Shown: positions 7,938 through 19,397 of the stretch, one piece after another
How the letters are laid out: each line of letters opens with the position of its first letter
Position numbering within the stretch: position 1 is the first letter of the stretch
From: Gammaproteobacteria bacterium AS21
GTDB taxonomy: Bacteria; Pseudomonadota; Gammaproteobacteria; Pseudomonadales; Balneatricaceae
Assembly (NCBI GenBank): GCA_038900335.1
Contig: JBBMRB010000001.1
Location: forward strand, 290,630-314,629
Direction of reading: 5' to 3'
DNA length: 24,000 nucleotides
Notes under the pieces: generated by a model
What the model was told of the DNA's origin: nothing
Databases searched by the model: none
The model's input: the letters and a program-made list of their open reading frames with translations, nothing else
Program-made: the position numbers and the translations under genes

Positions 7938-8807
7938 TTATTTAAAGACGACTGTCTTATTACCATCAAGGAATACACGATGTTCAATGTGCAACTTAAC
8001 AGCCTTTGCCAAGGCAATAGTTTCTGTGTCACGCCCTATCGCCACTAAAGAGTCAGCACTATAAGTATGATCAACTACCTGCACAGCTTGTTCAATAATA
8101 GGGCCTTCATCTAAATCAGGCGTTACGTAATGAGCAGTAGCACCTATTAATTTAACGCCTCTTTCGTGTGCTTGATGATAAGGCTTTGCGCCTTTAAAGC
8201 CAGGCAAGAAAGAATGATGAATATTAATGGCTCTACCTTTTAACTGAGTACATAGGTTATCAGTTAATACTTGCATATAACGCGCTAATACCACTAATTC
8301 AGTACCACTTTCATCTACAATATCTAATAGCGCCAACTCTTGTTCGCGTTTATTCTCTTTCGTAATAGGCAGGTAGATAAAGCGAATCCCTTCTCTTTCG
8401 GCCATTGGTCGTAAATCTAAGTGATTAGAAACAATCGCTGTGACTTCCATATTGAGCTCGCCCTTGCGTAAACGATAAAGCAAATCATCTAAACAATGGT
8501 CGAATTTACTCACCATAATCATCACTTTTGATGCTTTACTTGCATCAAGTAAGCTCCACGTTAAATCCAAGCTTTCAGCTAACTCAGAGAACTGCTCTTC
8601 AAGGTCTTCTCTGGTACATTCACCTGCTTCAATATAACCGACAGCACGCATGAAAAAATGGTTGCTATCTGGATCATCGTATTGTGATAAAGCGCTGATA
8701 TAGCAGCCTCTTTCAGCTAAAAAACTTGTTACACTGGACACAATACCACTTTTAGCGGCGCAGCTAACTTTTAATATAAAATGATGATCGTTCTTAAGTT
8801 CTGTCAT
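7938..8807 (-). CDS. purU: Formyltetrahydrofolate deformylase
   Basis: 289 aa with an N-terminal ACT-like regulatory domain (ILKVSCAAKSGIVSSVTSFLAERGCYI). The C-terminal formyltransferase domain carries LARYMQVL, INIHHSFLPGFKGAKPYHQA, GATAHYVTPDLDEGPII. Confidence 0.93.
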   Translation of the reverse strand: MTELKNDHHFILKVSCAAKSGIVSSVTSFLAERGCYISALSQYDDPDSNHFFMRAVGYIEAGECTREDLEEQFSELAESLDLTWSLLDASKASKVMIMVSKFDHCLDDLLYRLRKGELNMEVTAIVSNHLDLRPMAEREGIRFIYLPITKENKREQELALLDIVDESGTELVVLARYMQVLTDNLCTQLKGRAINIHHSFLPGFKGAKPYHQAHERGVKLIGATAHYVTPDLDEGPIIEQAVQVVDHTYSADSLVAIGRDTETIALAKAVKLHIEHRVFLDGNKTVVFK

Positions 8808-9506
8808 GGTAAGCCTTATTAAATAATAGATGACGTTTTTTATATTTAAGCATTATATTGATATAGAAATTGACTAAACCCACTGGAAATATATCCAAAA
8901 AGTAACCTTTTTCATAAAAGTACAATGATTACAGCTCAAATAAAATAGCTAAGCTTTTATAATAAATGATGTCATAAATAACAAATAATAAAATATTGCA
9001 ATGCCAATACTAGTGCAGCACTTAATACCCTGTTATTTCATTAAGTTAATCAAATAAAATAGATCTCGATTCTAAGACATCAAAGACACTTATGAAAGTG
9101 CTATAAGATAAAAATACCATTTGAACGCCGCTCCTGCCTGCAGCTTAAGTTTGGTAGTTAACAAAATATAAAAGCGCACACCAACCTCACGCTATTACCT
9201 AGCTTGATGAGTGTGAAATAAGCATATATTAGTGATGCTTATGTATGCATTAGCGATTAAATAAAAATAACCAAATTGATGGTCAATAGACTCTATTTCA
9301 ACAACCAAGTTATTCATGCTGCATTAATACTCTTTATGTTTAATTAACTGATCATTAAAAAAACAAGCCAATTTGAATACATAACAATATTTTTTTAGAA
9401 CTTGGAATATCTGTATTTTGTAAACTACACTCAATCATGATGATGCAGTCGTTTTAGCAGTAACTTAATGTAAGTTTAACATGTCATTGAATAAGGATAT
9501 TGAATT

Positions 9507-11048
9507 ATGGGGCCGATGAATGATACAGCGAGAAGTGATGAGCAATTTCTAAAAATAATTAACAAGTCTAGAGGTATTATTGATTTTACCATGGACGGTA
9601 TAATTATTAGCTGTAACCAAGTTTTTTTAGATTGTCTAGGTTATACATTAGATGAAATACAAGGAAAGCATCAAAGTATCTTTTTTAATGAAGACTATAT
9701 AGAAAGCTCTGATTATGCTGTTTTTTGGCAACGCCTTAATCAAGGTGAAACTATTGAGGAAGGTGAAAACAAATACCTAGGTAAAAATGATAAAGAAGTA
9801 TTTATTAAAACCATTTTCAACCCTGTTTTAGACGACGATAAGCAACCTATTAAAGTCATCCAGTTTGCCAATGATATTACTGAACATAAATTAAAAAATG
9901 CTGAGCATGAAGGTTTATTAACCGCGATTAATAAATCTCAAGGCATCATTGAGTTCAATATGGATGGTACTGTCATTTCTGCAAATCAAATATTCCTTGA
10001 TATTATAGGCTACTCATTAGCTGAGATTAAGGGTTTTCATCACAACCTATTTTGCGAAGCCTCTTATGCTAACAGTGAAGAATACCAGCAGTTTTGGGCT
10101 AAGTTAAATCGTGGTGAATTTGATGCCGGTGAATACAAGCGTATCGCTAAAGACGGTTCAGAAGCCTTTATTCAAGCAACCTACAACCCCGTTTTTGACC
10201 TAAATAACAAACCGTTCAAAGTGATTAAGTTTGCAACAGATGTCACTGAACGCAAAATCACCAATGCCGAATTTGAATGCAAACTACAAGCGATCGACAA
10301 ATCCCAGAGCACTTTAGAACTCAATATGGATGGTATCATCGTTAGTGCTAACGAAAAATTTCTTAAAATCGTAGGCTATACCCTAGAAGAAATCGTTGGT
10401 GAGCACCATCAAATACTTTGTGACGATGAGTATGTAAAAAGTCATCGATATACAGATTTTTGGCAGAAAATAAGGCGTGGTGAATTTCAGTCCGGGGAGT
10501 ATAAGTGTATTGGCAAAAATGGTCGTGAAGCTTACATTCAAGCAACCTACAACCCAATATTTGATTTAAATAATAACCCTATCAAAGTGCTAAACATTGC
10601 CTCGGATGTGACTGAGAAAAAACGTCGCGAAAATGAAAATGCCAAGCAAGCGGCACTCATTATGGATATGTCTACTCCGGTGATGCGCCTTTGGGACAAT
10701 GTCTTATTGCTACCTATTATTGGTTTAGTTGATTCTAAACGAGTGCAGACAATCATGGAAGCTGCGCTACAAAACATTTTAGATCATCAAGCGAAATTTC
10801 TTATTTTAGATATTCAGGGCGTACCGGCGATCGACAGTGCAGTGGCTAATTATCTTATCAAAGTCACACAGGCAACTAAACTGATGGGGTGTCGCTGTAT
10901 TGTCACCGGTATTTCACCACAAATATCACAAGCTCTTGTTAATTTAGGTATTGATTTAGGTGACATACTAACCCAATCCACGTTAAAGGATGGTGTCAGT
11001 ATGTCATTAAAAGAAATGGGACTTAAATTGGGGAGTATTAATAGTTAA
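9507..11048 (+). CDS. rsbR: RsbR-like stressosome sensor protein: three tandem PAS domains plus a C-terminal STAS domain
   Basis: 513 aa with three units of about 122 aa (INKSxGIIxFxMDG...GYxxxEIxGxHxxxF...FWxxLxxGE...NPxxDxxxxPxKVxxxAxDxTExK). The C-terminal STAS domain resembles Bacillus RsbR (MSTPVMRLWDNVLLLPIIGLVDSKR, LILDIQGVPAIDSAVANYL, LMGCRCIVTGISPQISQALVNLGIDL). AAGGA RBS upstream. Confidence 0.88.
   Translation: MGPMNDTARSDEQFLKIINKSRGIIDFTMDGIIISCNQVFLDCLGYTLDEIQGKHQSIFFNEDYIESSDYAVFWQRLNQGETIEEGENKYLGKNDKEVFIKTIFNPVLDDDKQPIKVIQFANDITEHKLKNAEHEGLLTAINKSQGIIEFNMDGTVISANQIFLDIIGYSLAEIKGFHHNLFCEASYANSEEYQQFWAKLNRGEFDAGEYKRIAKDGSEAFIQATYNPVFDLNNKPFKVIKFATDVTERKITNAEFECKLQAIDKSQSTLELNMDGIIVSANEKFLKIVGYTLEEIVGEHHQILCDDEYVKSHRYTDFWQKIRRGEFQSGEYKCIGKNGREAYIQATYNPIFDLNNNPIKVLNIASDVTEKKRRENENAKQAALIMDMSTPVMRLWDNVLLLPIIGLVDSKRVQTIMEAALQNILDHQAKFLILDIQGVPAIDSAVANYLIKVTQATKLMGCRCIVTGISPQISQALVNLGIDLGDILTQSTLKDGVSMSLKEMGLKLGSINS
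9540..10622 (+). repeat. Intragenic tandem triplication (three PAS-encoding units of about 366 nt each)
   Basis: The protein-level repeat offsets are 123 and 122 aa. Units 2 and 3 still share an identical 20-nt DNA block, ATTCAAGCAACCTACAACCC, at 10170-10189 and 10536-10555 (offset 366 nt). Confidence 0.8.
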
Positions 11049-11443
11049 TGACTTCATTATCCCAAGGCAGCTTAGCATCACCCGATAATTCTTCTAACAT
11101 GACGACATATGTTACTAGCGATTGTTTAGTCTTTCCTGTTCAAGCAGAACTTTCAAAACAAGCGGCTCTTAACGTACAGGCGTTTATCTTAGATCAGGTG
11201 CACTCAAAGAGTTATAACGGCGTTATTATTGATTTATCAGGTGTTGAAGTCATAGATAGTGTGCTGTGGCAGGTCTTTGCCAACACTTGCGTGATGATCA
11301 ATATGTTGGGGTATAGAACCGTCATAACCGGTCTAAACCCAGGCGTTGTTGCTGCGATTATGGACATCAATGTCGATCTAACCAAGGTGATAACGGCAAT
11401 GGATATACAAGATGCCCTAAATATATTAACCACAAAAGACTGA
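11048..11443 (+). CDS. rsbS: RsbS-like single-domain STAS protein (stressosome scaffold / antagonist)
   Basis: 131 aa with a STAS core (GVIIDLSGVEVIDSVLWQVF...MLGYRTVITGLNPGVVAAIMDINVDL). Ser71 sits in the VIDS context, the equivalent of the phosphorylated Ser of Bacillus RsbS. The start overlaps the rsbR stop (TAATG). An alternative start is Met18 at 11099. Confidence 0.85.
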   Translation: MTSLSQGSLASPDNSSNMTTYVTSDCLVFPVQAELSKQAALNVQAFILDQVHSKSYNGVIIDLSGVEVIDSVLWQVFANTCVMINMLGYRTVITGLNPGVVAAIMDINVDLTKVITAMDIQDALNILTTKD

Positions 11444-11488
11444 TTAACAGATAAGCCTGTAATAATAGCAACGAAGGCTAGATAAAGT

Positions 11489-11899
11489 ATGACATTAGAC
11501 ACTCAAAAATCACTGAAATTTCAGGTATATGATGAAGTTGACGTCGCCTACGCTGCATTAGGTGCTAAAAAATACGCTCAAGCTATCGGTTTTAATAGCC
11601 CGTCTCAATACATGATATCAACCGCTGTTAGCGAGCTGGCCCGAAATATTTATGTTTATGCTAAAAAAGGTACGGTTTTATTAAATTATGTAGATGAAGA
11701 GTTCAAACTAGGAATGCAAGTTATCGCCGATGATTGCGGCCCCGGTATTGTTGATATTGAAAAAGCTTTACTAGATACCTACAGCACTGGTGGCACTATG
11801 GGCGTAGGTCTACCTGGCACTAAAAGATTAATGGATGAGTTCAAAATTGAATCTATAGTTGGTAAAGGCACAAAGGTAACGATAGTTAAATGGTTGTAA
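11489..11899 (+). CDS. rsbT: RsbT-like serine/threonine kinase (GHKL anti-sigma-regulatory-factor type)
   Basis: 136 aa, collinear with B. subtilis RsbT as I recall it (ISTAVSELARNIYVYAKKG, ADDCGPGIVDIEKAL, YSTGGTMGVGLPGTKRLMDEF, GKGTKVTIVKWL). Confidence 0.88.
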   Translation: MTLDTQKSLKFQVYDEVDVAYAALGAKKYAQAIGFNSPSQYMISTAVSELARNIYVYAKKGTVLLNYVDEEFKLGMQVIADDCGPGIVDIEKALLDTYSTGGTMGVGLPGTKRLMDEFKIESIVGKGTKVTIVKWL

Positions 11900-12477
11900 T
11901 GAATTCAAGTCAATTAGAATATTTTGTCGCTACACGATCACTTGAGTCACTAAATGGCGACGCAGCATTTATTGTTGAAGACAATGATGAGCTATTCATT
12001 TTTATCTTTGATGGCGCAGGACATGGTGAATCAGCACATAATATCGCCATAGTAGCGGTTGATTTTATAAAAAAAAACAGACAGCTCGATTTGGTAAATT
12101 TAATGAGTGCTCTGCATGACAAACTAAAAGGTAGTGACGGAGGCGTAGCTGTTATTGCTAAATTCAATATGATAACAAGGCAGCTATATTATGTTGGCAT
12201 AGGAAATATATTTCTTCGTGTTTTTAGTGAATCTTCAAAACGTGAAATTACTCAAGGAGGCGTCATTGGTTATCAAATACGTAGCCCTAAAGAGAAGTCA
12301 ATCGCAGTGGCGACAGGCAGTACCATTGTTTTTCATACTGATGGCATTACCAGTCGTTTTAATGAAAGCGACTACCCAAACATACTCTGGGATGATGTCC
12401 AGACAGTTTCACAAATACTACTTGATAAGTTTGGGAAGAATAATGATGATGCGACCTGTGCAGTTATACGTGTGTAA
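11890..12477 (+). CDS. rsbX: RsbX-like PP2C/SpoIIE-family phosphatase
   Basis: 195 aa with motifs NGDAAF, FIFDGAGHGESAH, VFHTDGI and NDDATCAVIRV, matching RsbX-type feedback phosphatases. It overlaps rsbT. The start may instead be the ATG at 11899, which would form a TAATG junction. Confidence 0.85.
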   Translation: MVVMNSSQLEYFVATRSLESLNGDAAFIVEDNDELFIFIFDGAGHGESAHNIAIVAVDFIKKNRQLDLVNLMSALHDKLKGSDGGVAVIAKFNMITRQLYYVGIGNIFLRVFSESSKREITQGGVIGYQIRSPKEKSIAVATGSTIVFHTDGITSRFNESDYPNILWDDVQTVSQILLDKFGKNNDDATCAVIRV

Positions 12478-12548
12478 TAACACTAAGACGTTAATTTTTG
12501 GCAATAGTTTTAAATCTCATATCTCACAATATTTTTGGGCTGTCTAAC

Positions 12549-15212
12549 ATGATTTCTCTAGGTACTATCTGCATAAATGATGAAGACAGTATTGTCCACA
12601 CCCGTAGTAAAATTCGCAGCCTATCAATCAATTTAGGCTTTAGTGCGATTGAAGCTACACGTCTTTCGACGACGACCTCTGAAGTTTGTTGGTTGCTGTT
12701 AGAGCAGCAGGCAAAAATTGAGGTTTATCTCCAGCAAACACAACAACAATATGCTTTGCTGTTAGTATTTAAAAGTAATATCGACGCTGTTGATTTAACT
12801 AAATTCCAAGGCCCTTTTAGTCAATTAGTTGCAGAAAAAACGAACAAAGATAGGATAAATATTAGGGCAGTAAAAAATATTATTAATCCAGGATTCGACC
12901 CAGACGAAAACTTCATTAATGAAAGTCAGCGCAAAATAGAGCAACTTAGTCGTGAAGATCTTGTCGGTGAACTAAAAGTCGCTATCAACCAAGCTGAAGC
13001 GGCGAATCAAGCTAAAAGTGACTTTCTGGCAAATATGTCCCATGAAATTCGCACGCCGATGAATGCCATTATCGGTATGTCTTACCTTGCTTTAAAAGGC
13101 AATTTAGATCCAAAACAACGTAATTATATTGAGAAAGTACATCGCTCAGGTGATAGTTTACTAGGGATTATTAACGATATATTAGATTTCTCTAAGATTG
13201 AAGCTGGCAAATTAGATATCGAAAAAATTAGTTTTAGAATTGAAGATGCATTTGATAATTTGGCTAATCTAGTAGGCCTTAAAGCAGAAGAAAAAGGCTT
13301 AGAATTACTATTTGATTTACCGACCAACCTGCCCGCTTTCTTAGTAGGCGACCCATTACGCTTAGGTCAGGTTTTAGTTAATCTTGGCAATAATGCGGTG
13401 AAATTTACTGATACAGGTGGTGAAATTAGAGTTAATGTCATCGTTAAAGAAGAAACAGACAGCTCTATCACATTACAGTTTTCTGTTTGTGATTCCGGTA
13501 TAGGGATGACGCCAGAGCAACAACAAAAATTATTTAAATCCTTCTCCCAGGCAGATACCTCAACTAGTCGAAAATACGGTGGTACCGGTTTAGGCCTCGT
13601 CATTTGTAAGAAATTGTCAGAATTAATGGGCGGTTCTATATGGGTTGAAAGCGAGGCGGGACAAGGAAGTACGTTTCACTTTACCTCTAAGTTTAAAAAA
13701 CAATCAGGGGAAATATCAAACACGCGTCAAAAAGCAGAAACATTGGAATCAATACGTGTGCTTATAGTTGATGACAACGCCTCTGCTCGAGAAATTTTAA
13801 CCTCTATTGTTGAGAGCTTCGGCCTACACGTTGACTCCTGTCAAAGCGGCGAAGAAGCGTTATCTATGATTAAAACTGCCTCTACAATAAGTCCCTACAA
13901 ACTAGTATTATTAGATTGGAAAATGCCAAATATGAGTGGCGTTGAAGTTAGTAGAGCACTGCAAAATGACACCTCGCTCGCTCAATGCCCTGATATTATT
14001 ATGATTACAGCGTATGGTCGTGAAGATGCTATTGAATCCATCAAAGACATAAGTATTCAAGGATTTCTCACTAAACCTGTTACAGCATCGAGTCTACTTG
14101 ATGCCATACTTATCACAATGGGAAAAGACACCGCTGTTAATTCACGTAAGGATACCAGTAAAACACAGTCATCAGCATCTATTGCCAAGCTAGTCGGTGC
14201 TAAGATTTTACTAGTTGAAGATAACGAGCTCAATCAAGAGTTAGCACTGGCTCTATTAGAAAATAATGGCTTAATAGTAGAGATTGCTAACAATGGTCAG
14301 CAAGCTGTAGAAAAAATAACAAATTCTGATTTTGACGGCGTATTGATGGATCTTCAAATGCCCATTATGGATGGCTTTGAAGCGACCAAAATAATTCGCG
14401 AGCAAGCTAAGTATAAAGATTTAGCTATTATCGCTATGACGGCAAATGCAATGGCCGGCGATAGAGAGAGAGTTATCGACGCCGGGATGAATGATCATAT
14501 CGCTAAGCCTATTAATGTCAATGACATGTTTGCCACTATGTCTAAGTGGATTAGTTCTAAAAACCCAATAACATCACCGCTTAAAACAGATGAAACGGAT
14601 AGTATCAACGGCGTTAATTTACCTGATATTGCACAGCTAAATATTGACGTTGGCCTTAACTCTACACAGGGTAATCAGGCATTATATCAAAAATTATTAG
14701 TGAAATTTTATATCAGCAACAGCACCTTTTCCCAGTCTTTTAGCCAGGCATTATCAGCAGATGATCAATCGACTGCGCTTCGACTTGCGCACACTCTCAA
14801 AGGCGTTGCGGGGACGATAGGCGCACAACAACTTCAAAGTGTTGCCGGCACTCTAGAAAATGCCTGTGAAAATAAAGCGACTAAAGCTGAACTTATGTTA
14901 TTACAAGAACAGGTAGAGATAGCGCTGGAACCTATCTTACAAGGATTATCCAATTTTGACCCCAATGACACTATCGTTAATGATAAAACACAGACACTAG
15001 ATTTAGTGGCGTTAAAAATAATACTGATTAAATTAAGAAATTTAATCGAAGAAGATGACGCTGAAGCAACCTTTATTATCCATGAACTCAATGCACTGCC
15101 AGGTATTGCGCAACATAGCCACACATTGCGCAAGCTTACTAATGCTATTGATAGTTATGATTTTGATGAAGGACTTGAGCTGCTAGCTGAACTTGAGGAA
15201 TTAGTTATCTAA
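12549..15212 (+). CDS. Hybrid sensor histidine kinase: N-terminal RsbT-like degenerate domain, HisKA, HATPase_c, two receiver domains, Hpt
   Basis: The H-box [11 protein letters not shown] has its His codon at 13041. N-box [13 protein letters not shown]1 DSGIGM and G2 GGTGLGL are present. REC1 carries VLIVDDN and [12 protein letters not shown]2 carries ILLVEDN and [12 protein letters not shown]. The Hpt motif is [13 protein letters not shown]. There are no TM segments, so it is probably cytoplasmic. I call the ATG at 12549 as the start; the ORF track uses the TTG at 12498. Confidence 0.9.
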
Positions 15213-15226
15213 TTTAAGAAGGTAAT

Positions 15227-16279
15227 ATGGATATCAACAACAAAAAACAAACTATACTAGTGGTTGATGACACCCCTGAAAACATTGATATTTTAAGTGG
15301 TGTGTTAAGGAATAAATACAAGGTAAAAGCGGCGCTTAATGGTGATAGAGCATTAAAAATAGCGCGTACAGCACCCTATCCTTCTATGATTTTATTAGAC
15401 ATAATGATGCCAGGTATCGACGGTTATGAAGTGTGCCGTCAATTAAAGGCTGACCCGCAGACATCCAAAATACCTATTATTTTTATCACTGCTAAAAATC
15501 AAGATGGCGATGAGAAAATCGGCCTTGAGCTAGGCGCAGTAGACTATATTACCAAACCTTTTAGTCCTTCAATAGTCGAGGCAAGAGTACATACCCATTT
15601 ATCATTATACGATCAAAACCTAGCACTTGAACACCAAGTCAATCAACGCACTAAAGAATTACTCGCTACGCGCTTGCAAATTGTTCGTATATTAGGCCGT
15701 GCCGCCGAATTTAAAGATAATGAAACAGGCTTACATGTTATTCGCATGAGCCATTATGCCAGGCTTATTGCTGAAAAATTAGGTAATAGTGCCTCTTGGG
15801 GGGACTTGATTTTCAGTGCTGCACCATTACATGATATCGGCAAGATCGGCATTCCCGATCACATTCTATTAAAACCTGGTAAGCTGACCGATGATGAATG
15901 GGCTATTATGCGTAAACACCCAGAGTTTGGTGCTGAAATTATTGGTAAAAATGATTCTGAAATTCTGATGACCGCCAAGGAAATAGCGCTAACTCATCAC
16001 GAACGATGGGATGGTAGCGGCTATCCGAACCAGCTAAAGGGTGAGGAAATTCCTATCAGTGGACGTATAATTATGATTGCAGATGTATTTGATGCCCTCA
16101 CCACGCAAAGGCCTTATAAAAAAGCATGGTCGGTTGAAGATGCTGTCAAATTGATAAATGATAGTGCGGGCACTCATTTTGACCCCAGTTTAGTTTCCAT
16201 TTTCAATGAAGTACTGCCCTCTATACTGGCTATAAAAGAAAGTTACGCAGAATCTACAGCGGGTACTCATACCTCTTAA
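15227..16279 (+). CDS. Response regulator with HD-GYP domain (RpfG-family c-di-GMP phosphodiesterase)
   Basis: 350 aa. The REC domain has ILVVDDTPEN, MILLDIMMPGIDG and ITKPF. The HD-GYP domain has PLHDIGKIGIPD and HHERWDGSGYP. It starts 14 nt after the kinase stop. Confidence 0.92.
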   Translation: MDINNKKQTILVVDDTPENIDILSGVLRNKYKVKAALNGDRALKIARTAPYPSMILLDIMMPGIDGYEVCRQLKADPQTSKIPIIFITAKNQDGDEKIGLELGAVDYITKPFSPSIVEARVHTHLSLYDQNLALEHQVNQRTKELLATRLQIVRILGRAAEFKDNETGLHVIRMSHYARLIAEKLGNSASWGDLIFSAAPLHDIGKIGIPDHILLKPGKLTDDEWAIMRKHPEFGAEIIGKNDSEILMTAKEIALTHHERWDGSGYPNQLKGEEIPISGRIIMIADVFDALTTQRPYKKAWSVEDAVKLINDSAGTHFDPSLVSIFNEVLPSILAIKESYAESTAGTHTS

Positions 16280-16356: not shown

Positions 16357-18543
16357 TTAACTGAGCACTGACTCTGGTTCAAACTGATCGCCATTGGCAC
16401 AGTAATCTAAAAATAATTTTAAATCCTCTATCTCTAATGGTTTAGCGATATGAAACCCCTGTGCATAGTCGCATTGCATATCACCTAGCAATTCAAGTAA
16501 AGCCTGCGTTTCTACACCTTCACCAACGACTTTCATCTTTAATGAATGTGCTAAATCAATCATCGCCTTGATAACAGTATCGCTGTTATCTCCCCTATTT
16601 AGTAAGAAACTTTTATCTATCTTTAATTCTTTAACGGGCAACATAATCAAATAGGAAAAGGATGAGTAACCTGTACCGAAATCATCAATGGACGCGCTAA
16701 AGCCTTTACTGGTTAGTTGGTTTAATATTTTTATAGCCTGCTCAGGCTTCTCCATTGCCGTTGTTTCAGTTATTTCTAAATTTATACTTGTAGGCGATAT
16801 ATTTAATGTTTTACATACGCCCTCTAAGATACTGGGCATTTCAGGCTGACTGAATACCCGCCCCGACAGATTGATGGAGACACAAAAGTTGCGATTAGCT
16901 TTAAACATAGGTCGGCATTGTATACAAGCGCGGCGGAAAACCCATTGGGTTAACTCATAAATACTGCCATTTCGCTCGCAAATAGGAATAAATTCGACAG
17001 GAGAAATAAGTCCTAATTGCGGGTGCTGCCAGCGAACTAACGCTTCAACTTTATTCACTCGCCCTGAATTAACATCTAAAATGGGTTGGTAGAGAACAAA
17101 AAGTTGGTTGTTTTCTATCGCGCTCTTAAAATCACGGCCTAATTGCGATTGACGTCTCAATTGTGAATCTGTTTCTGGGCTATATAATGTATAGTTAATA
17201 TCAGATCGTTTTGCGTGATACATCGCTAAATCAGCATTTTTGACCAGTGTACAGGCATCTTCACCATGTTGCGGATAAATCGCGGTCCCGATATTTGCAG
17301 TAATAAGAATACTTTTAACATCTTGGTTATTACAAATAACAGGCGCTTGTAATACTTTAATAAATTTTTGTATTATTGACTCACCATCATGATTACTAGC
17401 CACTGCAAGTAATGCATAAAACTCATCTCCTCCCATTCGGGCAACAGTATCAGTTGAGCGCAAAACACTAGATAGTCGTTTAGCGACTTCACAAAGTACG
17501 AGATCGCCAATTTGATGGCCATAATTATCATTTACCTCCTTAAACTTGGTCAGATCAATACTGGCAACTATAAATCGAGTGTTATTACGTCGGCCTAATT
17601 TTATATATTGCTCTAGACGATCCTGAAACAAGGTTCTATTAGGTAAAGAGGTTAGTGCATCGTGAAGCGCAAGGTGCTTAAGCTCTTCATTGGCTTTTGA
17701 AAGTGATTTAGTTCGAGACAATACACGCTCTTCAAGCTTGCGTTTTTGTGACTCAATGACGGCCATTTTATCGACAATTGCGATCCGCATTTGGTTAAAG
17801 TTAGTCGCTAGTAAATACAGTTCATCGTCATGTTTAGCATTGATGACATTATCAAGGTCAGCAGAGTTTTTAAGTGTTTCAAGCTTATCGGGGTTAAGCG
17901 CACTGGCGGCATTGGCCAATGCTTCCAAAGGCTTTGCAACAAACTTGTTGACGAAAAACAAAAAGAATAACCACAGTGCTGCACTCTTGATGATCGAAAA
18001 AATAATGATTAATAGAAAACTGTATTTAACACGATCAATAATGATATTAACGTCAGTATAAATATGACCAAAACCAATTAATGTATAGGGGCCATTCGCA
18101 TTTTCTAGACGCTCTAAAGGAAAGGCGTATTCAAACAAAGTTTGGCGTTTAGTTGAATTAACTTGTGCTAATTCAACTTCCTTCATATTGGGGTTTGCCA
18201 AGTTTTCTTCTAGATAAATGATGCTATCATCACTAACCACATCTCCCATTGATGCAATTACTTGGTTGCGTTCAGAAACTATTTTAATACCGGAGACTGC
18301 ATCAATTTTCATCATCCCAGAGAGAATCACCTCTAGTTGCGATGTATCAAAAGACCAAATGGAATTCATAATACTGCCTTTAAATGTTGTCTCTATATTA
18401 TTGATTTGATTGAAGACTTCTCTTTTCACATCGCGGTATTCCGAGTTCAATTGAAGTGCCGTTATCAATACAGCAACAATAAGATAACAACCAAATACGT
18501 AACGCAGTAAACGCAGGCCTATGCCATTTTTAAATTTATTCAT
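16357..18543 (-). CDS. Membrane-bound GGDEF-EAL c-di-GMP turnover protein with periplasmic loop and HAMP
   Basis: 728 aa with two TM segments flanking a periplasmic region of about 140 aa, then a HAMP-like linker. The GGDEF motif is intact and has an RxxD I-site five residues upstream (RSTDTVARMGGDEF). The EAL domain has intact EALVRW, DDFGTGYSS, KIDKSF and EGVET motifs. Confidence 0.92.
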   Translation of the reverse strand: MNKFKNGIGLRLLRYVFGCYLIVAVLITALQLNSEYRDVKREVFNQINNIETTFKGSIMNSIWSFDTSQLEVILSGMMKIDAVSGIKIVSERNQVIASMGDVVSDDSIIYLEENLANPNMKEVELAQVNSTKRQTLFEYAFPLERLENANGPYTLIGFGHIYTDVNIIIDRVKYSFLLIIIFSIIKSAALWLFFLFFVNKFVAKPLEALANAASALNPDKLETLKNSADLDNVINAKHDDELYLLATNFNQMRIAIVDKMAVIESQKRKLEERVLSRTKSLSKANEELKHLALHDALTSLPNRTLFQDRLEQYIKLGRRNNTRFIVASIDLTKFKEVNDNYGHQIGDLVLCEVAKRLSSVLRSTDTVARMGGDEFYALLAVASNHDGESIIQKFIKVLQAPVICNNQDVKSILITANIGTAIYPQHGEDACTLVKNADLAMYHAKRSDINYTLYSPETDSQLRRQSQLGRDFKSAIENNQLFVLYQPILDVNSGRVNKVEALVRWQHPQLGLISPVEFIPICERNGSIYELTQWVFRRACIQCRPMFKANRNFCVSINLSGRVFSQPEMPSILEGVCKTLNISPTSINLEITETTAMEKPEQAIKILNQLTSKGFSASIDDFGTGYSSFSYLIMLPVKELKIDKSFLLNRGDNSDTVIKAMIDLAHSLKMKVVGEGVETQALLELLGDMQCDYAQGFHIAKPLEIEDLKLFLDYCANGDQFEPESVLS

Positions 18544-19397
18544 CTATTGTGTTCTAGCCCATATTTCATTTGTAACTGAGCGATAGTGCCATCAGCAATT
18601 AATTCATTCAGAGCCTTACGCATAGGGGCAAGAATCCTGTCATCAATTTTATTATTAAATGCATAACCCATATTCGAATATTTTAATACATGGACTATTT
18701 CAAATTTATTAGCATCAATATTAGCTTTCTTAAACAGAATTTGTGATGTGGCGTGGGCATAACTCATGGCATCAATTCTGCCTGAATCAAGTTTTTTGAC
18801 AATACTGAGCCCTGAGTTAAGTTTATCTAAAGAGTCGGGCTGTACTCCTTCACTAAGCAGTAGCTGTTCCCCTATATCATCTCTGATAACACCAATTGTT
18901 AAGCCTTGAAGATCATTAATATGCTGAACCGATAAGTGGCTAAATTTTGGCGCTATCACGGCGACTATGTTAACTGCGAAAGGCCCTACAAATTTCATTT
19001 CTTTTAATCGTTTTTTAGAATAAGTAGTCGAAAAGAGCGCGGTTTGAGGGTCGTTCAATAGCTGATTATAACCACGTGCCCAAGGGTATATTTTCAATTC
19101 AACTTTATCGCGTGAAACGCCTAATTTATCAAAGATGCTTAATAATATCTCTACTCCAATCCCTGTTATTTCACCGGTTATAGGGTCTTTATAATTAAAT
19201 GGCGGATACTCTTCAGTCACCCAATTTAAATTTTCAATGGCACTAACAATCTGTTTAGGATCATCTAAATCACTACTTGCGATAGCCTGATGGCTAAACA
19301 TTATTGAGAGTATAAATGTGGCGATAACCCTGCTTATCGCAGCCTTGTTGGGGTAGCTATATATCATCGTTCTAAATCTCTTGTACTGCGCAAACAT
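18540..19397 (-). CDS. Periplasmic solute-binding protein, family 3 (amino-acid/polar-ligand type), no transporter partner in view
   Basis: 285 aa with a signal-peptide-like N-terminus (AISRVIATFILSIMFSHQAIA/SS) and SBP_bac_3-like features (WVTEEYPPFNY, GIGVEIL, WARGY, TIGVIRDDIGEQLL). Its stop overlaps the GGDEF-EAL start (ATGA, 18540-18543). The start may be Met11 at 19367. Confidence 0.75.
   Translation of the reverse strand: MFAQYKRFRTMIYSYPNKAAISRVIATFILSIMFSHQAIASSDLDDPKQIVSAIENLNWVTEEYPPFNYKDPITGEITGIGVEILLSIFDKLGVSRDKVELKIYPWARGYNQLLNDPQTALFSTTYSKKRLKEMKFVGPFAVNIVAVIAPKFSHLSVQHINDLQGLTIGVIRDDIGEQLLLSEGVQPDSLDKLNSGLSIVKKLDSGRIDAMSYAHATSQILFKKANIDANKFEIVHVLKYSNMGYAFNNKIDDRILAPMRKALNELIADGTIAQLQMKYGLEHNR

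Follow-up and report, generated by a model that had tools for sequence, protein, structure and literature searches.

A PAS-array stressosome operon of the Vibrio type and its proposed output kinase, which begins with a degenerate RsbT-like domain

Introduction

The closest described relative of the locus treated here is the Vibrio-type stressosome locus of Vibrio vulnificus (VV2_0073-78), which consists of an upstream module, rsbR-S-T-X (RSTX), and a downstream module with the sensor kinase VvD1 and its partner VvD2 (PMC10014275). Deletion of RSTX and deletion of D1 each lower motility and fleQ expression, and the locus had already been predicted to degrade cyclic di-GMP (c-di-GMP) (PMC10014275). 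The two modules are alike in their transcription kinetics and in the phenotypes of their mutants (PMC10014275, PMC9237108), and the stressosome has been solved by cryo-electron microscopy (PDB 7O0I; PMC9237108). The present analysis concerns a six-gene cassette in a stretch of 24,000 nucleotides (the window) from the marine Gammaproteobacteria bacterium AS21, which comprises rsbR, rsbS, rsbT and rsbX, a hybrid kinase (D1) and a REC-HD-GYP response regulator (D2), in this order. RsbR of the window and that of AS21 are 100% identical. At a probability of about 0.55, the cassette is read as a stressosome operon of the Vibrio type that senses through a PAS array; its output would run through an N-terminal domain of D1 (D1_N), the kinase itself and D2 to the breakdown of c-di-GMP.

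Heinz et al. surveyed RSTX modules together with their downstream architectures, named Vibrio among those controlling c-di-GMP and listed V. pectenicida as one of the few Vibrio species in which the set is complete (PMC9237108). It was also noted in the V. vulnificus work that RsbU_N, the N-terminal domain of RsbU, is absent from most downstream proteins. The wiring from stressosome to phosphorelay to HD-GYP protein is therefore already known, and an earlier note on this DNA, which had called the combination uncharacterised, was mistaken on that point: VV2_0073-78 has the same six-gene architecture, mutants, a cryo-electron microscopy structure and a predicted degradation of c-di-GMP. The logic proposed in that note, in which a stressosome acts through a phosphorelay on an HD-GYP protein and c-di-GMP is degraded, stands as the best reading, while its novelty does not. 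What is new here is the PAS-array sensor, a D1 without an internal PAS domain and one more organism in the Vibrio-type family.

On comparing the window with a V. vulnificus-type locus (L032), the same six genes were found in the same order, with RsbX directly after RsbT and no sigma factor. In L032, D1 has the architecture PAS-HisKA-HATPase-REC-REC-Hpt and D2 is a REC-HD_5/HD protein. Identity between the two loci amounts to 54% in the REC domain of D2 and 47% in its HD-GYP part, 46% in the STAS domain of RsbR, 45% in the core of D1, 42% in RsbT, 32% in RsbS and 31% in RsbX. The sensor of RsbR is a haem globin in V. vulnificus, where relatives of VvRsbR carry PF11563, but three PAS repeats in the window. 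VvD1 is 1063 amino acids long, with one more PAS domain that lies ahead of HisKA and after the N-terminus, whereas D1 of the window has 887 amino acids; VvRsbS has glycine at the phospho-acceptor position, where RsbS of the window has serine. In L032 itself, rsbR (~8400-9543) is broken by an in-frame stop codon in the globin part and the gene caller reports only a 180-residue STAS fragment, so that the gene is either a pseudogene in that strain or the product of an assembly error.

The SigB pathway of Bacillus subtilis and Listeria has homologous RsbR STAS domains, RsbS, RsbT and RsbX, with the same phospho-acceptor contexts. Those bacteria also have RsbU, RsbV, RsbW and SigB; the window is without them, has a phosphorelay as output and carries RsbX inside the module. 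Both RsbU of Bacillus and D1 begin with an input domain followed by a helical linker, though this domain is the all-helical RsbU_N in Bacillus and the GHKL-derived, alpha/beta D1_N in the window. In Moorella thermoacetica, MtR-MtS-MtT-MtX and MtG (RsbU_N-GAF-GGDEF) likewise form a stressosome that is wired to c-di-GMP and not to transcription. There, however, the outcome is synthesis under direct control by RsbU_N, whereas the window would achieve degradation by a four-step His-Asp-His-Asp relay with D1_N as input. A direct route from stressosome to HD-GYP also exists: in a metagenome-assembled genome (MAG) of Syntrophaceae (L018), an RsbU_N-GAF-HD-GYP protein is encoded right after the RSTX genes.

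The relation between D1 and D2 follows the logic of RpfC-RpfG in Xanthomonas, in which a hybrid kinase with REC and Hpt domains is followed by a REC-HD-GYP c-di-GMP phosphodiesterase. RpfC sits in the membrane and senses the diffusible signal factor DSF. Unlike RpfC, D1 of the window is soluble, has two REC domains and has D1_N as its sole input domain.

Stressosome core and phosphorelay proteins

The domains expected in the earlier note were recovered by Pfam in all six proteins, namely three PAS domains and STAS in RsbR; STAS in RsbS; HATPase_c_2 in RsbT; SpoIIE in RsbX; HisKA, HATPase_c, two Response_reg domains and Hpt in D1; and Response_reg with HD_5/HD in D2. The three phospho-acceptor codons that it had located in RsbR and RsbS proved exact as well. 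The STAS domain of RsbR has RsbR of the V. vulnificus stressosome as its top PDB match (7O0I, E 1.9e-39) and also matches Listeria RsbR. Its acceptor residues are Thr390 in DMSTPVM (ACT codon, 10674-10676) and Ser444 in AIDSAVA (AGT codon, 10836-10838); MSTPV and AIDSAV align to STPV and VDT, respectively, and the STPV and DS/DT sites are kept in most related loci. RsbS matches its B. subtilis counterpart (6JHK, E 7e-18), with VIDSV opposite MIDSF and Ser71 encoded by AGT at 11258-11260. The acceptor serine of RsbS is present in 29 of 32 aligned sequences, the exceptions being glycine (L009 and V. vulnificus) and threonine (L027). The RsbS proteins of D1_N-type cassettes have a DS-x-LW signature in common (here DSVLW, 11255-11272), while other RsbS proteins show D-S-F-x-A/G-R/K.

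RsbT aligns to SpoIIAB (1TIL/1L0O) and its motifs are intact: the N-box SELARN (11630-11647), the G1 box DDCGPG (11729-11746) and the G2 box GVGLPG (11801-11818). Among its orthologues, the N-box asparagine occurs in 30/31 and DxGxG in 31/31. The translation of RsbX shows DGAGHG, HTDG and NDDAT and no other domain. From the homology of the subunits with those of solved stressosomes, RsbR and RsbS are predicted to assemble into a large core that holds RsbT.

The kinase D1 has phospho-acceptor motifs in HisKA, both REC domains and Hpt (Table 1), and its full-length AlphaFold2 model has a mean predicted local distance difference test score (pLDDT) of 90.4. After the Hpt domain there follow about 70 residues (819-886; 15003-15209) in which four helices are predicted with high confidence and which have no Pfam match. 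D2 shows the sequence features of an RpfG-type HD-GYP protein: a REC domain with the acceptor aspartate in ILLDIMMP (15389-15412), the HD motif LHDIGK (15827-15844), the GYP-containing stretch HHERWDGSGYP (15992-16027) and a complete set of His/Asp metal ligands. Its predicted substrate is c-di-GMP.

A degenerate RsbT-like domain at the N-terminus of D1

The earlier note had named the domains of the kinase correctly from HisKA to Hpt but had missed the one that precedes them. D1_N escapes the usual searches: no Pfam family matches it, HATPase_c_2 included, a word-index protein search with the N-terminus of D1 returned no relatives, and its profile gave only a chance match among PDB sequences. 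An exhaustive HMMER search of 1.84 billion representatives, in contrast, yielded 93 relatives of D1_N, nearly all of which match from their first few residues. When D1_N was compared with an RsbT profile by hhalign, residues 7-79 were aligned on RsbT 11-83 with a probability of 91% and E 1e-6. The relationship holds in both directions, as genuine RsbT proteins, that of Heyndrickxia coagulans among them, are matched by the D1_N hidden Markov model (HMM) at E ~1e-10 and down to 6e-11, and the RsbT HMM matches the first ~80 residues of nearly all members of the D1_N family.

The AlphaFold2 model of D1_N (pLDDT 94.1, predicted template modelling score 0.88) consists of a strand, two helices, four strands and a helix. 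In a Foldseek search against the PDB, the 18 best matches were all chains of RsbW, UsfX or SpoIIAB, with template modelling (TM) scores of 0.6-0.75. Three independent lines, namely profiles, modelled fold and structural neighbours, thus place D1_N with RsbT and the anti-sigma kinases RsbW/SpoIIAB, as a degenerate relative; its kinship to RsbW/SpoIIAB becomes visible only by profile-profile comparison and fold. With RsbT, RsbW, SpoIIAB and UsfX, D1_N shares the fold and profile-level sequence, especially in the N-terminal strand, the two helices and the first strands of the sheet; unlike them, it has lost the N-box asparagine, G1, G2 and the ATP lid and is fused to output domains. The N-box asparagine occurs in 0/45 D1_N sequences and DxGxG in 3/72, against the near-complete retention of both in RsbT, and the G2 box and ATP lid are missing. 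As the residues for ATP binding are lost, D1_N is considered a pseudokinase. Invariant residues of the family are R19, K21, R38 and S44-E45; the conserved Ser44 lies in a buried SE motif that derives from the N-box helix.

RsbU_N was also considered as the coupling domain of D1 and was rejected. No match to PF08673 (RsbU_N) was obtained at E <= 0.01, by the method that detected this family in L018, and residues 1-133 are modelled as alpha/beta and not as a helical bundle. D1_N is always N-terminal, and the outputs behind it include HisKA and HisKA_2/HWE kinases, SpoIIE phosphatases and class III nucleotide cyclases, as well as one GGDEF-EAL protein and one PAS-GAF-GGDEF-HD-GYP protein. RsbU_N controls the same range of outputs (PMC12143880). 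An intermediate was found in Cesiribacter: in a kinase encoded downstream of RsbRST, the N-terminal domain is still called HATPase_c_2 by Pfam. In the literature searched, no description of an RsbT-derived pseudokinase domain at the head of an output kinase was found. D1_N is likely to be the missing link between stressosome and output where RsbU_N is absent. More tentatively, it may be proposed as a previously unrecognised input domain that arose from RsbT by loss of ATP binding and forms a second class of stressosome output beside RsbU_N, in the strongest form of this idea by docking on the STAS core.

Conservation of the cassette

The conservation of the gene neighbourhood, which the earlier note had proposed as a check, turned out positive. 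The same succession of six genes was found in no fewer than 12 other loci, whose flanks are unrelated, the hosts being V. pectenicida, V. hepatarius, V. tetraodonis and two further Vibrio genomes, a Marinomonas genome, an Oceanospirillaceae MAG, Catenovulum sediminis and metagenome contigs from Tara Oceans and JGI. The cassette is flanked by genes for PurU, a methyl-accepting chemotaxis protein (MCP) and a GGDEF-EAL protein in the window, by a Lap-type adhesin system in V. pectenicida and by gyrB and glyQS in a Tara contig. Since the order is kept while the flanks change, the cassette travels as a unit and the adjacency of its genes is not due to chance. The phospho-acceptor contexts are kept in nearly all cassette loci, one exception being L009, in which the serine of RsbS is replaced by glycine. 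The genome scan with RsbT used restrictive patterns and did not return V. vulnificus; the V. vulnificus-type locus was reached by way of the PDB sequence of VvRsbR.

The last gene is replaced in two cassettes that keep R-S-T-X-D1. In a MAG assigned to Fibrobacterales (L011, 4863-5933), its place is taken by a gene for a REC-class III nucleotide cyclase, and in one assigned to Nitrospinota (L009, 13977-14399) by a gene for a bare REC domain. Because it is swapped among sister cassettes, the final output is modular.

The linkage of D1_N to stressosome genes was also seen when D1_N was the starting point. The genomic context of six family members was inspected, and in 4/4 informative loci the D1_N gene directly follows STAS-STAS-HATPase_c_2-SpoIIE genes, the contigs of the other two being too short to judge; in one informative locus, a D1_N-cyclase lies behind a globin-type RsbR. 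A metagenome scan by D1_N peptide patterns alone gave 26 loci, and RsbX and/or RsbT is encoded just upstream in 25/25 informative ones, the 26th being uninformative as its contig begins 27 nucleotides before the D1_N gene. RsbS and an RsbR-type STAS protein are likewise encoded upstream wherever the contig extends that far. Clustering at 80% identity sorts the 25 metagenome loci that contain the D1_N domain into 11 groups, 10 of them informative.

A subgroup of D1_N kinases is encoded directly after RsbR-RsbS-RsbT, with no RsbX between (L048-L053, L055, L056 and L058). In two metagenome loci (L034, 4385-5064; L035, 6268-6931), the gene of the D1_N kinase precedes genes for a single-domain receiver and a KaiB homologue, and upstream in L034 there is a gene fragment with a PF06745 ATPase domain, which may be KaiC/RecA-like. 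These two loci hint at stressosome modules that are linked to Kai-type proteins.

Proposed mechanism and alternatives

RsbR, with its three PAS domains and STAS, would build a stressosome-like core with RsbS in which RsbT is held. A signal perceived by the PAS array would cause RsbT to phosphorylate Ser71 of RsbS and Thr390 and Ser444 of RsbR, and RsbX would strip these phosphates and reset the system. The output would be the soluble hybrid kinase D1 in place of a sigma factor. D1_N would receive the signal, most likely by binding RsbT, which would be freed once RsbS and RsbR are phosphorylated, and the binding would be relayed along the linker helix to the DHp domain. D1 would then autophosphorylate on the histidine of HisKA, the phosphate would reach the REC domain of D2 by way of a REC domain of D1 and then Hpt, and phosphorylated D2 would become active as an HD-GYP phosphodiesterase, so that c-di-GMP falls and motility is favoured over biofilm.

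The coupling step is the least certain part of this model. It is suggested by the position of D1_N, which occupies the place that RsbU_N has in RsbU, since it is N-terminal and precedes a helical linker that runs into the helix with the phospho-accepting histidine. In the D1 model, a helix at residues 120-131 is followed by a three-residue break and then by a long helix (135-182) that bears this histidine. The motif LSREDL marks the junction of D1_N and HisKA and occurs in the relatives and in VvD1 as SR-D/E-EL-M...KN-EL. For RsbU, it was shown that binding of RsbT to the N-terminal domain rigidifies a coiled-coil linker and that the mechanism is modular across output types (PMC12143880). The stressosome probably acts positively through D1 and D2, because loss of RSTX phenocopies loss of D1 in V. 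vulnificus (PMC10014275). D1_N bears on a question raised in the V. vulnificus work, namely by what route a signal gets out of a stressosome that has no RsbU_N partner, and residues 1-133, with R19, K21, R38 and S44-E45, offer a concrete mutable handle on the coupling step.

Several observations weigh against the binding of free RsbT by D1_N and the generality of the link. Heinz et al. detected no interaction between VvRsbT and VvD1 and suggested transient phosphorylation instead (PMC9237108). The N-terminus of VvD1 gives weak but co-linear matches to D1_N and shares the linker motif, with an hhalign probability of just 13.6%. The partners of the solved structural neighbours of D1_N are in every case STAS or sigma proteins, never another GHKL kinase, and in L035, a D1_N locus, RsbT is fused to STAS, a poor fit to an RsbT that diffuses freely. 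The metagenome scan used two peptide patterns from a four-sequence alignment, covers one D1_N subfamily and is no census. In the main rival reading, D1_N would be a mimic of RsbT. D1_N would dock directly on unphosphorylated STAS domains of RsbS and RsbR, which would make the hybrid kinase itself a client of the stressosome, and RsbT, no longer the messenger, and RsbX would only set the phosphorylation and hence whether D1 is bound or free. Pseudoenzymes usually retain the binding partner of the parent enzyme, and every close structural neighbour of D1_N was solved together with a partner that is either a STAS antagonist or a sigma factor (RsbW-RsbV, 6M36/6M37; UsfX-RsfB, 8IH8; SpoIIAB-SpoIIAA, 1TH8/1TID). 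The negative result with VvRsbT and VvD1 would be accounted for, the fused RsbT of L035 would be suited, Cesiribacter has recognisable RsbT-like domains fused to a PP2C and to a kinase, and the DS-x-LW signature is found in RsbS of D1_N-type cassettes only. By chained alignments, the invariant Arg19 of D1_N falls at the position of SpoIIAB Arg20, which is presumably a docking residue; RsbT, however, has alanine there, so that Arg19 was not inherited from RsbT. The ATP lid, which makes up half of the GHKL-STAS interface, is absent from D1_N, we know of no precedent for a histidine kinase docked on a stressosome, and the equal phenotypes of RSTX and D1 loss in V. vulnificus fit only if binding activates D1. 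Docking by mimicry is therefore held to be possible but rather doubtful. If it were true, the stressosome would be a scaffold for whole signalling enzymes and not only a cage for RsbT, and kinases, PP2Cs, cyclases and GGDEF/EAL enzymes bearing D1_N would dock on the STAS core and be released by the phosphorylation that RsbT and RsbX set. RsbT might instead act on D1 as an enzyme, by transient Ser/Thr phosphorylation, with D1_N merely a dimerisation or substrate-presenting domain. Heinz et al. made this proposal for VvD1, where it explains the missing stable complex with RsbT (PMC9237108), and the RsbT homologue of Moorella was reported to phosphorylate the downstream diguanylate cyclase (PMC4976288). 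RsbT of the window has all catalytic motifs, but what this kinase family is known to phosphorylate is STAS domains, of which D1 has none, the conserved Ser44 of D1_N is buried, and the kinase activity of RsbT is reportedly not needed for activation of RsbU in B. subtilis (Kang et al. 1998); we consider this route unlikely.

The preferred reading, with D1_N as the link from stressosome to phosphorelay and c-di-GMP as the final target, may also be questioned as a whole and at its end. RsbRSTX might have an unlinked target and merely adjoin an ordinary two-component system, as could be argued from the 71-nucleotide gap between rsbX and D1 and from the partner D2, which varies by locus (REC-HD-GYP, REC-cyclase or REC alone). 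Such independence is highly improbable given that R-S-T-X-D1 is kept across genera with wholly different flanks, that D1_N genes follow RsbT/RsbX in every informative metagenome locus found by D1_N alone and that the two V. vulnificus modules share transcription kinetics and mutant phenotypes. As to the end of the pathway, D2 might hydrolyse 3'3'-cGAMP, for example, or act mainly by protein-protein contacts. Some Vibrio HD-GYP proteins degrade cGAMP, D2 scores 151.7 bits where the cut-off of the NCBIfam c-di-GMP phosphodiesterase family NosR is 400, and the cyclase and the bare REC of sister cassettes mean that the second messenger is variable. Against this, D2 has both the HD and the GYP motif and a full set of HHE/D metal ligands, REC-HD-GYP is the architecture of RpfG, whose known activity is hydrolysis of c-di-GMP, and a change in c-di-GMP is consistent with the V. 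vulnificus phenotypes (PMC10014275), which makes an output other than c-di-GMP improbable.

The PAS array of RsbR

No Protoglobin match was obtained by Pfam in RsbR of the window, and three tandem PAS repeats stand in the place of the globin. The repeats are 122 residues long each and 42-57% identical in pairwise comparison. In orthologous proteins, as judged by protein length and Pfam matches, one repeat is present in Catenovulum (RsbR of 288 amino acids), two in the Oceanospirillaceae MAG (390), three in the window, Marinomonas and Vibrio (513-544), four in P0010 (636) and five in a Tara contig (757). These steps of ~122 residues in otherwise orthologous cassettes (L017, L007, L009, L004 and P0010) suggest that the sensor array has expanded and contracted repeatedly. 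The range of one to five repeats provides a natural series in which to ask how the sensor "turrets" control the stressosome.

The repeats are most alike the PAS arrays of soluble chemoreceptors, and the closest solved PAS domains are those of MmoS (PAS-A) and Aer, which bind flavin adenine dinucleotide (FAD) (3EWK, 5.5e-12; 8DIK, 3.9e-9). The flavin-pocket residues of Aer are H53, N85 and R115 (PMC9668731). In RsbR the histidine is kept only in PAS2 and PAS3, the asparagine position is occupied by Y, R or C, and the arginine position by A/N, A/T or A/S, the last in an alignment made by eye past the end of the printed Aer alignment. With two of the three pocket residues absent and only the histidine conserved, in two of three repeats, a flavin of the Aer/MmoS type is unlikely. 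A PAS domain of the LOV type was also rejected, as the repeats, inspected by eye, are without the NCRFL-type cysteine motif.

Operon layout and neighbouring genes

The six open reading frames are co-directional on the forward strand (Table 1). When the junctions were read directly, all those given in the earlier note were exact: TAATG between rsbR and rsbS (11046-11050), the overlap of rsbT and rsbX (11890-11899), in which ATG 11890 lies inside the 3' end of rsbT and the rsbT stop codon is 11897-11899, and the 14-nucleotide spacer between D1 and D2 (15213-15226), which contains AAGAAGG. The spacing of rsbS and rsbT is 45 nucleotides. RsbX may start at 11890 or, as the gene caller has it, at 11899, which would form a second TAATG junction. 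D1 almost certainly starts with ATG 12549 (887 amino acids) and not with TTG 12498, because the gene caller uses 12549 and 71 of the 93 relatives align from their first few residues, typically MI-x-LG; the gap between rsbX and D1 that follows from this start is the one of 71 nucleotides.

Table 1. Features of the stressosome cassette (positions in the window)
Feature	Position	Strand	Basis or motif
Conserved leader/promoter region	9398..9506	+	directly 5' of rsbR, within the 699-nt AT-rich intergenic region 8808-9506
rsbR-like co-antagonist (3xPAS-STAS), 513 aa	9507..11048	+	Pfam PAS_3/PAS_9/PAS_4 x3 and STAS
RsbR PAS repeat 1	~9534-9899	+	Pfam PAS
RsbR PAS repeat 2	~9900-10265	+	Pfam PAS
RsbR PAS repeat 3	~10266-10631	+	Pfam PAS
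RsbR C-terminal STAS domain	~10659-11021	+	Pfam STAS
rsbS-like antagonist, single STAS, 131 aa	11048..11443	+	Pfam STAS
rsbT-like GHKL Ser/Thr kinase, 136 aa	11489..11899	+	Pfam HATPase_c_2
rsbX-like single-domain PP2C phosphatase, 195 aa (192 aa from 11899)	11890..12477	+	Pfam SpoIIE, E 4e-11
D1 hybrid kinase, open reading frame	12498-15212	+	
D1_N, D1 residues 1-133	12549..12947	+	degenerate RsbT/RsbW/SpoIIAB-like GHKL domain
D1 remainder after D1_N	12945..15212	+	Pfam and motif location
D1 signalling-helix linker	12945-12962	+	LSREDL
D1 HisKA	13011-13208	+	H-box MSHEIRTP 13035-13058
D1 HATPase_c	13347-13694	+	Pfam
D1 REC1	13755-14078	+	Asp in LVLLDWKMP
D1 REC2	14202-14534	+	Asp in VLMDLQMP
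D1 Hpt	14694-14930	+	His in AHTLKG
D2 response regulator (REC-HD-GYP), 350 aa	15227..16279	+	Pfam Response_reg 2e-25, HD_5 5e-40, HD 6e-22

Within the 24-kb window no gene for a sigma factor, RsbU, RsbV or RsbW was found, in agreement with the earlier note. No Rfam family was matched in the window or in the long region upstream of rsbR, and promoter and terminator scans gave scores no better than those of shuffled sequence, with no convincing sigma-70 promoter 5' of rsbR. The ~110 nucleotides directly before rsbR are nearly identical in a relative that is 83% identical (L006), whereas the intergenic sequence farther upstream has diverged; the conserved part may be a regulatory leader or a promoter that is not of the sigma-70 type.

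The remaining open reading frames of the window encode ABC-3 permeases, an esterase, a methyltransferase, an MCP, PurU, a GGDEF-EAL protein, a solute-binding protein (SBP), an AraC regulator, TauD and a beta-eliminating lyase. The gene of the GGDEF-EAL membrane protein (16357-18543, reverse strand), which shows a weak CHASE5 match, HAMP, GGDEF and EAL, is convergent with the end of the cassette, so that a second gene for a c-di-GMP enzyme lies beside that of the HD-GYP protein. Upstream of it, with an overlap of 4 nucleotides, there is a gene for an SBP_bac_3 solute-binding protein (18540-19397, reverse strand). In L006, a close relative, this pair adjoins the cassette as well; in other genera it does not.

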